A stretch of 64,000 bases of DNA from an uncultured Clostridium sp. (lineage in GTDB: Bacteria; Bacillota; Clostridia; TANB77; CAG-508): positions 691-64,690 of the forward strand of contig CABUGH010000003.1 of NCBI GenBank assembly GCA_902491155.1, given 5' to 3'. Below, in pieces: positions 52,903-53,079 of this stretch. Positions within the stretch are counted from its first letter, which is position 1, and every line of letters starts with the position of its first letter. The position numbers and the translations under genes are program-made. The notes beneath the pieces were generated by a model. The model saw nothing but the letters and a program-made list of their open reading frames with translations, did no database searches and was not told where the DNA came from.

Positions 52903-53079
52903 TTATTAATCTAAAAACTTAATAAAAAAATGAAATAAAGAAGTCCTTAGAATAGCAATAGCTTCAAGTCATTTTATAATTTTTGTTTAAAAAATTTTTG
53001 AAATATTGGTATTGCATTTTTTGTTGGTATATGATATAAAATTTAATATACAATTTTTATTAAGTTTTTAGATTAATAA
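52903..53079. promoter_or_regulatory. Candidate invertible promoter element (26-bp perfect inverted repeats around 125 bp)
   Basis: IR-L is ttattaatctaaaaacttaataaaaa (52903-52928), the exact reverse complement of IR-R (53054-53079). Inside are TTGCAT (53012-53017), a 17-nt spacer containing TG, and TATAAA (53035-53040), all on the + strand and so facing away from the gene at 52875. Confidence 0.5.

Follow-up and report, generated by a model that had tools for sequence, protein, structure and literature searches.

The locus examined here raises the question of whether the 125 bp enclosed by two inverted repeat arms, upstream of a gene for an LRR surface protein, form a promoter switch that is operated by DNA inversion, as was proposed in a sequence-only reading of the 64-kb stretch of DNA under analysis (the window), which derives from an uncultured Clostridium sp. 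and has a G+C content of 24-30% in most 2-kb windows (range 0.20-0.30). The repeat itself is exact, as had been described: positions 52903-52928 read TTATTAATCTAAAAACTTAATAAAAA, and the perfect reverse complement stands at 53054-53079, with 125 bp in between. A repeat search extended the pair to 31 nt at 97% identity (52898-52928 and 53054-53084). When up to three mismatches are allowed, the 26-mer occurs at just these two sites in the window, whereas 100 dinucleotide-preserving shuffles yielded no occurrence, and the pair is the sole clean inverted repeat with 100-1000 bp between its arms across the 64 kb. The perfect 26-bp repeat is therefore far above chance expectation. The features of the locus, together with those of a distant block of the window that is considered below, are collected in Table 1.

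Table 1. Coordinates of the switch, its sites and other features of the 64-kb window
Feature	Position	Strand	Basis or remark
Gene-proximal recombination site (putative)	52898-52930		perfect core 52903-52928
Proximal half-site TTTTTTTATTAA	52898-52909		
Proximal asymmetric spacer TCTAAAAAC	52910-52918		
Proximal half-site TTAATAAAAAAA	52919-52930		
Gene-distal recombination site (putative), inverted orientation	53054-53084		perfect core 53054-53079
Distal half-site TTTTTATTAA	53054-53063		
Distal spacer GTTTTTAGA	53064-53072		
Distal half-site TTAATAATAAAA	53073-53084		
Invertible segment, 125 bp	52929-53053		exact inversion of allelic 126-bp segment (L013 vs L004)
Predicted extended -10 promoter TTGCAT-N17-TGaTATAAA	53012-53040	+	sequence; family conservation
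Intrinsic terminator of upstream minus-strand operon	53104-53141	-	17-pair stem, T-tail, z-score -5.4
Controlled gene, 458-aa protein (LRR458)	51499-52875	-	LRR_5, E 6e-60
Presence/absence stretch, 3475 bp	49553-53027		contig comparison
KAP-family NTPase	1657-4263		Pfam
Type I R-M specificity subunit	6078-7385		
N6-methylase/HsdR_N fusion	7538-9508		
MobA/VirD2 relaxase	9676-11037		
IS256/Mutator-family transposase	12101-13339		

The enclosed segment contains the near-consensus extended -10 promoter that had been noticed on the + strand, facing away from the LRR gene, with a -35 element TTGCAT (53012-53017), a 17-nt spacer, TG at 53032-53033 and a -10 element TATAAA (53035-53040); a simple promoter scan lists an overlapping and weaker combination, TTGGTA-18-TATGAT, in place of TTGCAT-17-TATAAA. 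The activity of TTGCAT-17-TGaTATAAA is predicted from its agreement with the consensus and, with this predicted promoter facing away from the LRR gene, the orientation found in the window is OFF. In this state a simple scan gave no minus-strand promoter between the LRR gene and the hairpin at 53104-53141, and a promoter scan upstream of the switch, where the terminator of the preceding operon is located, found none. The same hairpin had been proposed as the structure into which the segment promoter fires. Its position agrees with this proposal, but it is primarily the terminator of the minus-strand operon, which comprises genes for a PP2C phosphatase, a PASTA kinase, RsgA and Rpe and a 61-aa ORF. 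The tail of the hairpin reads AAAGTTTTTT on the minus strand and only TTTTGT on the + strand and, since the U-tract is short in the latter direction, the predicted structure would be at best a weak bidirectional terminator. It may shield the switch from read-through and may also stop + strand transcripts made in the OFF state.

The two parts of the segment differ in their conservation. In an alignment of 11 switch sequences from the human gut, the arms and the promoter block (53009-53053) are nearly invariant and the distal half (52929-53008) is hypervariable, differing by about 20% even among strains with flank identities of 99.4% or more. In the window's segment this distal half has only a weak fold (z-score -1.6), and no convincing terminator was detected inside it. 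In the relatives found in rabbit-gut MAGs, the distal half contains a terminator-like hairpin followed by a T-run, which faces the gene in the OFF state.

Exact-protein look-ups with Rpe, the 61-aa ORF and the LRR protein led to human-gut metagenome contigs that are 99.4-100% identical to the region. The assemblies of four samples (L004/L040, L006, L010 and L017) have in common a 126-bp allele of the segment in the orientation of the window. A further assembly (L013/L043; ERZ28617251) has the segment in a form that is exactly reverse-complementary to this allele (126 of 126 positions), while the flank on the rpe side, comprising 300 nt plus the repeat arm, is identical in L013 and the four samples. 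Both orientations thus occur in nature between the same flanks, in assemblies of different samples. Flipping L013 for the alignment brings the one outer mismatch of the 31-nt repeat to the other side; the mismatch stays with the flanks, which implies that the flanks did not move and that the crossover took place inside the perfect 26 bp. The predicted promoter of L013 faces the LRR gene (ON), with 13 nt separating its -10 element from the proximal arm and 53 nt separating it from the ribosome-binding site (RBS), and the leader in this orientation measures about 60 nt. Inversion had been predicted to place the promoter about 60 nt upstream of the RBS; the change of orientation holds, while the distance from the -10 element would be 53 nt and the value of about 60 nt corresponds to the length of the leader. 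Taken with the evidence given below, this exact inversion supports the proposal of an invertible promoter switch, and we put at about 0.85 the probability that the 125-bp segment is an inverton, an invertible promoter that switches phase by DNA inversion. We infer that the inversion is reversible within one clone.

Among the 13 assemblies that carry LRR458, 12 are OFF and one is ON, the inversion being seen between samples. For a paralogue, LRR469, three assemblies (L015, L027 and L032) show the ON orientation, and most copies of the family described below were assembled OFF. This predominance fits a mostly silent repertoire and is unlike what would be expected of fast unbiased switching. A metagenome-wide scan with the proximal site and the gene flank returned just two contigs, which are too few for a census of ON and OFF states. 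Two contigs of 52-53 kb (L044 and L045) end at, or at most 7 nt from, the inner edge of the distal arm, as would be expected of a branching point in an assembly graph.

The switch is not a solitary element. At least 22 distinct switches, with segments of 125-165 bp, were found in human-gut contigs and in four rabbit-gut MAGs assigned to 'uncultured Clostridia bacterium'. The 26-mer with two degenerate positions matched, within the genome collection, only these rabbit-gut MAGs (eight contigs of the four), and look-ups with LRR paralogues added more copies from human-gut samples. In 20 of the 22 the same promoter motif, TTGnnn-17-TGnTAnnnW, is found in the same position, at a fixed distance from one arm, and an RBS and an ATG are recognizable within about 60 nt of an arm in 20 of the 22. 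Every neighbouring gene product that was read (about 18) begins with a leader of the type ...KGITL(I/V)ALV(I/V)TII(I/V)LLIL..., followed by LRR_5 repeats or by other or unknown domains. A fixed promoter, TTGAAA-17-TGtTATAAA, precedes two paralogues that lack the repeats, one in L033, which is 95% identical to the LRR protein of the window, and LRR426 in L029; their leaders align base for base with the ON state of the switch and show a degenerate remnant at the position of the arm. These fixed-promoter paralogues are the best available argument that the ON arrangement would be a working promoter-leader unit. An Rfam scan gave nothing at the switch locus.

A long-read contig from a related species (L035) contains two tandem switches, at 11264-11441 and 13439-13616, upstream of two 641-aa LRR genes. 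Their 9-bp spacers differ (TCTTGGAAC and TCTTAAAAC), a difference that would block recombination between the two switches and hence deletion of the intervening gene.

The arms themselves give an indication of the type of enzyme involved. The proximal arm has the layout T7ATTAA-TCTAAAAAC-TTAATA7, and the arm pattern matches both strands at an offset of 3 nt, which reveals an internal dyad symmetry: each arm is composed of inverted half-sites of about 12 bp around an asymmetric spacer of 9 bp. The asymmetry is confined to this 9-bp centre, and the centre alone therefore sets the orientation of the site. In the 11 aligned switches the proximal arm is nearly invariant except for the spacer, and the centres vary over loci and species (TCTTGGAAC, TCTTAAAAC, TTAGAAAAC, TTAAAAAGC and GGTGAAAAC), while in the two arms of any one switch the spacer is the same or differs by a single base (22 switches). 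The core sites of tyrosine recombinases, such as lox, FRT and dif, consist of inverted binding elements and a spacer that matches between the partners. By analogy, the half-site/spacer/half-site layout suggests that the arms are core sites of the tyrosine-recombinase type and that the enzyme acting on them belongs to this class.

The search for a candidate enzyme of this kind covered the window and related loci totalling about 230 kb. Pfam searches of 57 ORFs gave no tyrosine or serine recombinase in the 64 kb, in keeping with the earlier remark that none is adjacent to the switch, and phmmer/jackhmmer searches of 294 kb (the window and the related loci) with Hin, FimB, XerD-like and large-serine seeds found nothing beyond two candidates, neither of which could be convincingly linked to the switches. 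One is an integrase in L014, located 1.4 kb from the switch and next to spoIIM, which scores above the cut-off of the XerD equivalog (TIGR02225) and is probably the housekeeping enzyme; the other is a truncated large serine recombinase in L026, 2.1 kb from one switch of a rabbit MAG, which is a single case. Since none was found in the window, the recombinase presumably acts in trans. As paralogous genes with prepilin-like leaders are preceded by these same sites and promoter, a set of surface proteins is probably under the control of a single recombinase that acts in trans.

Two other readings of the locus dispense with inversion. The element could be a MITE with an outward-facing promoter, its repeats being terminal inverted repeats and the two orientations the products of independent insertions. 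It is indeed multi-copy and short (about 180-220 bp), with terminal repeats of 26-31 bp, and the window harbours both an IS256-family transposase and an Rpn-family PD-(D/E)XK gene. However, a target-site duplication is present at none of the 22 copies, and the MITE reading was rejected on this ground; the proximity of an arm to an RBS and ATG in 20 of the 22, and the restriction of the neighbours that were read to one class with prepilin-like leaders, point to duplication of the switch together with its genes rather than to transposition. Nor would independent insertion leave the outer repeat mismatch with the flanks in the inverted allele, or give the arms the layout of a recombinase core site with co-varying spacers, and we regard the MITE as extremely unlikely. 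It is also very unlikely that the region is a fixed promoter with repeats that serve as a hairpin or a protein-binding operator and that the inversion in L013 is an assembly artefact. The ON orientation at the LRR458 locus was seen in one assembly only, some of the contigs have low coverage, and the 31-nt repeat exceeds the smallest k-mers of metagenome assemblers, which cannot then orient the segment; against this, the usual assemblers finish with k-mers (55-141) that are longer than the repeat, and the LRR469 paralogue is ON in three independent samples. Moreover, in most copies the promoter is directed away from the one plausible target that it has, which would be senseless if it were fixed, base by base the ON state agrees with the paralogues that have a fixed promoter, and a simple operator would not give rise to co-variation of the spacers between arms.

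A third reading accepts the recombination sites but assigns them mainly to large-scale rearrangement or cassette exchange, in the manner of a shufflon, to or from an expression site, with ON/OFF inversion as a secondary effect. It draws on the observation that an identical LRR458 gene, together with its switch and the proximal site, is attached to four different left flanks: rpe in the window and at least five other samples, XerD-MntP-glyoxalase in two samples (L014 and L028), SpoVG/cation-ATPase in a single contig (L011) and a divergent LRR469 gene in a single contig with 4x coverage (L015). L016 has the same segment allele as L014 and L028, without the left flank. Every contig with an alternative flank begins to match the window precisely at 53084, where the distal site has its outer edge, and has a different segment allele; the divergence of segment alleles between nearly identical flanks points in the same direction. 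The alternative left flanks are provisionally attributed to recombination between switches, with L011 and L015 each being a single contig. The latter (ERZ857808) has one switch, at 3796-3973, between the divergent LRR469 on the left and LRR458 on the right, an arrangement in which a single promoter could toggle between two genes; the junction may be a rare rearrangement or a mis-join. Cassette exchange as the main role is a possibility that we hold to be doubtful: some of its junctions rest on a single contig of low coverage, the different spacers of the tandem switches in the related species would block exchange between them, and the simple local inversion was observed directly. Exchange of this kind would in any case extend the function of the segment as an inversion switch rather than exclude it. 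A 48-kb inversion between the switch and a position near 4290 was rejected, as the 868-aa protein encoded there is a KAP NTPase and not the cation ATPase of L011, and the left flank of L011 has no match in the window.

The locus also varies by presence and absence. Many gut contigs that are otherwise 99.8% identical join position 53028 directly to 49552 (L001-3, L008, L037-39, L041-42 and L046). The missing stretch covers the proximal site and the greater part of the segment, together with the LRR gene, a gene of the Rpn family and one of 202 aa whose product has a prepilin-like leader; an orphan distal site and 26 nt of the segment are all that these strains retain. The Rpn-family gene (50494-51351, + strand), annotated as a PD-(D/E)XK 'recombination-promoting nuclease/putative transposase', lies directly downstream of the LRR gene. 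Several metagenome contigs end within it, which suggests that it is multi-copy; no link between this gene and the inversion was found. The 202-aa gene (49719-50327, minus strand) encodes a second protein with a prepilin-like leader and without LRR. At the DNA level its 5' end and that of the LRR gene are about 81% identical, the 202-aa gene is not flanked by repeats, and the sequence ATGCAT-16-TATAAA found upstream of it is possibly a locked remnant of a switch promoter.

The gene under the control of the switch has an RBS, GGAGGG, at 52883-52888, and starts 8 nt after it. The N-terminus of its product is a prepilin-like hydrophobic leader, MLKQTKKQKGITLIALVITVIVLLILAAV, which is followed by BspA-type LRR_5 repeats. 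Of the earlier description as a BspA-LRR surface protein with a prepilin leader, the repeats are matched by LRR_5 (E 6e-60); for the leader the Pfam model N_methyl gives 18.2 bits, under its cut-off of 21.2. In addition, the residue at +5 after the putative G/I cleavage site is Ala and not Glu. In a rabbit-gut MAG (L019), a gene for a type IV leader peptidase (Peptidase_A24; 4437-5171) is located about 660 nt downstream of a switch-controlled homologue with a prepilin-like leader, which supports the occurrence of real prepilin-type processing in the lineage.

Elsewhere in the window, positions 633-13339 form a block that resembles a mobile or defence island; besides the genes listed at the end of Table 1 it includes DUF4268. 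A tandem array at 31047-31515, between def and priA, has 3.6 copies of a 130-bp unit (98% matches), each with a long palindromic stretch, TTAAAATTTATGAGA.G.ACTAAAGTACTTTGATTAAATTTTAA. The coding sequence of PriA is divided between neighbouring ORFs of 221 and 561 aa (31520-33872), and the germination protease Gpr (22764-23550) also looks split, into a 159-aa ORF (22764-23243), which in a scan of this ORF alone matches only the middle of the Peptidase_A25 model, and an overlapping 106-aa ORF (23230-23550); both splits could be due to frameshifts, pseudogenes or assembly errors. A tmRNA gene (39153-39508, + strand; RF00023, 175 bits) is the only Rfam match in the window.

Several known systems resemble the switch in part. 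The polysaccharide promoters of Bacteroides fragilis are served in trans by one global invertase, Mpi, which is a serine recombinase (reference listed in PMC11602134). Like these promoters and other gut invertons known from surveys of the PhaseFinder type, the family described here combines a shared repeat motif and an embedded promoter with the control of surface structures; it differs from the B. fragilis system in phylum, repeat, promoter type (sigma-A extended -10) and cargo, and the layout of its sites suggests, by analogy, a tyrosine recombinase in place of a serine enzyme. The repeat families of invertons are conserved across related species, and gut invertons include groups in Clostridia that are linked to tyrosine recombinases (PMC11892184). 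E. coli fimS, which is acted upon by the tyrosine recombinases FimB and FimE, likewise consists of a short invertible segment with the promoter of a surface-structure gene, the orientation of which sets the ON and OFF states. It is a 314-bp segment with 9-bp repeats and adjacent recombinase genes (textbook; PMC2784873), whereas the switch of the window has a 125-bp segment, dyad-symmetric repeats of 26-31 bp, no nearby recombinase and many copies per genome.

The C. difficile pdcB switch includes a promoter that can be inverted (PMC9286219) and is, like that of the window, a clostridial switch in a genome with several site-specifically inverting loci; a second promoter lies upstream of the pdcB switch, in contrast to the terminator found upstream of that of the window. 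No sequence relationship was found between the repeats of the window and those of the C. difficile switches, each of which has its own imperfect repeats, whereas near-identical sites are reused over loci and species in the family reported here. The cwpV switch, to which the sequence-only reading had likened the locus, shares with it repeats located tens of nt upstream of a surface-protein gene, a small segment and a recombinase that is not adjacent, RecV not being encoded near the switch (PMC2784873). The analogy is nevertheless a poor one. The cwpV segment is without a promoter, which lies upstream, and the OFF state results from an intrinsic terminator in the leader (PMC2784873), whereas in the window the promoter is inside the segment and the weakly folding distal half offers no such terminator. 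Better analogues than cwpV are fimS, the Bacteroides polysaccharide promoters and C. difficile pdcB.

The mechanism that fits these observations best is the following. A recombinase encoded elsewhere in the genome would pair the two inverted core sites, and strand exchange inside the 26 bp that they share, probably at the asymmetric 9-bp spacer, would flip the 125-bp segment. In the OFF state the only good sigma-A-type promoter of the segment would fire away from the LRR gene, in the direction of the hairpin that terminates the upstream operon, leaving the gene without a promoter and shielded from read-through. After inversion the -10 element would lie 13 nt from the proximal site, and transcription would cross this site, continue over a leader of about 60 nt and reach GGAGGG and the coding sequence of the 458-aa protein. 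The switch would be one copy of a multi-locus family that shares sites and promoter upstream of paralogous genes. A more far-reaching and tentative proposal, which we put forward as one of the less likely extensions, is that of a conserved inverton regulon across several species of uncultured gut Clostridia, in which one trans-acting recombinase flips promoter cassettes at lox-like 12-9-12 sites in front of genes for LRR and other surface proteins with prepilin-like leaders and also recombines switches with one another. In such a regulon, recombination between switches would swap promoter cassettes, make two-gene toggles of the kind found in L015 and rearrange the chromosome, and divergence of the spacers would protect the genes that lie between tandem switches from being deleted.

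The switch reveals no new mechanism; promoter inversion is already known, and what is added is the switch family, the architecture of its sites and the class of its cargo. No paper on the repeat, or on phase-variable LRR proteins with prepilin-like leaders, was found in the literature searched, and large inverton catalogues could include the element unnamed; in the parts of the hCom2 inverton survey supplements that were available, the repeat has no match. The conserved site motif provides a handle for finding the recombinase, and the search motif TTATTAA-N9-TTAATAAAAA, taken as inverted pairs 125-165 bp apart, is usable for mining metagenomic reads for ON/OFF ratios. The genome assemblies of these Clostridia break or vary at the switch sites.

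Bacteroidota and cultured Firmicutes, C. difficile among them, account for most known invertons. The switches described here constitute a well defined inverton family in uncultured low-GC Clostridia of the human and rabbit gut, with an unusually clear site architecture and a specific class of cargo, namely BspA-type LRR and other proteins that have prepilin-like leaders. Phase-variable surface proteins shape the adherence, immune evasion and phage resistance of gut bacteria and, if the tentative regulon proves to be real, it would amount to an antigenic-variation system in an uncultured commensal, with mostly silent members and a few that are expressed.
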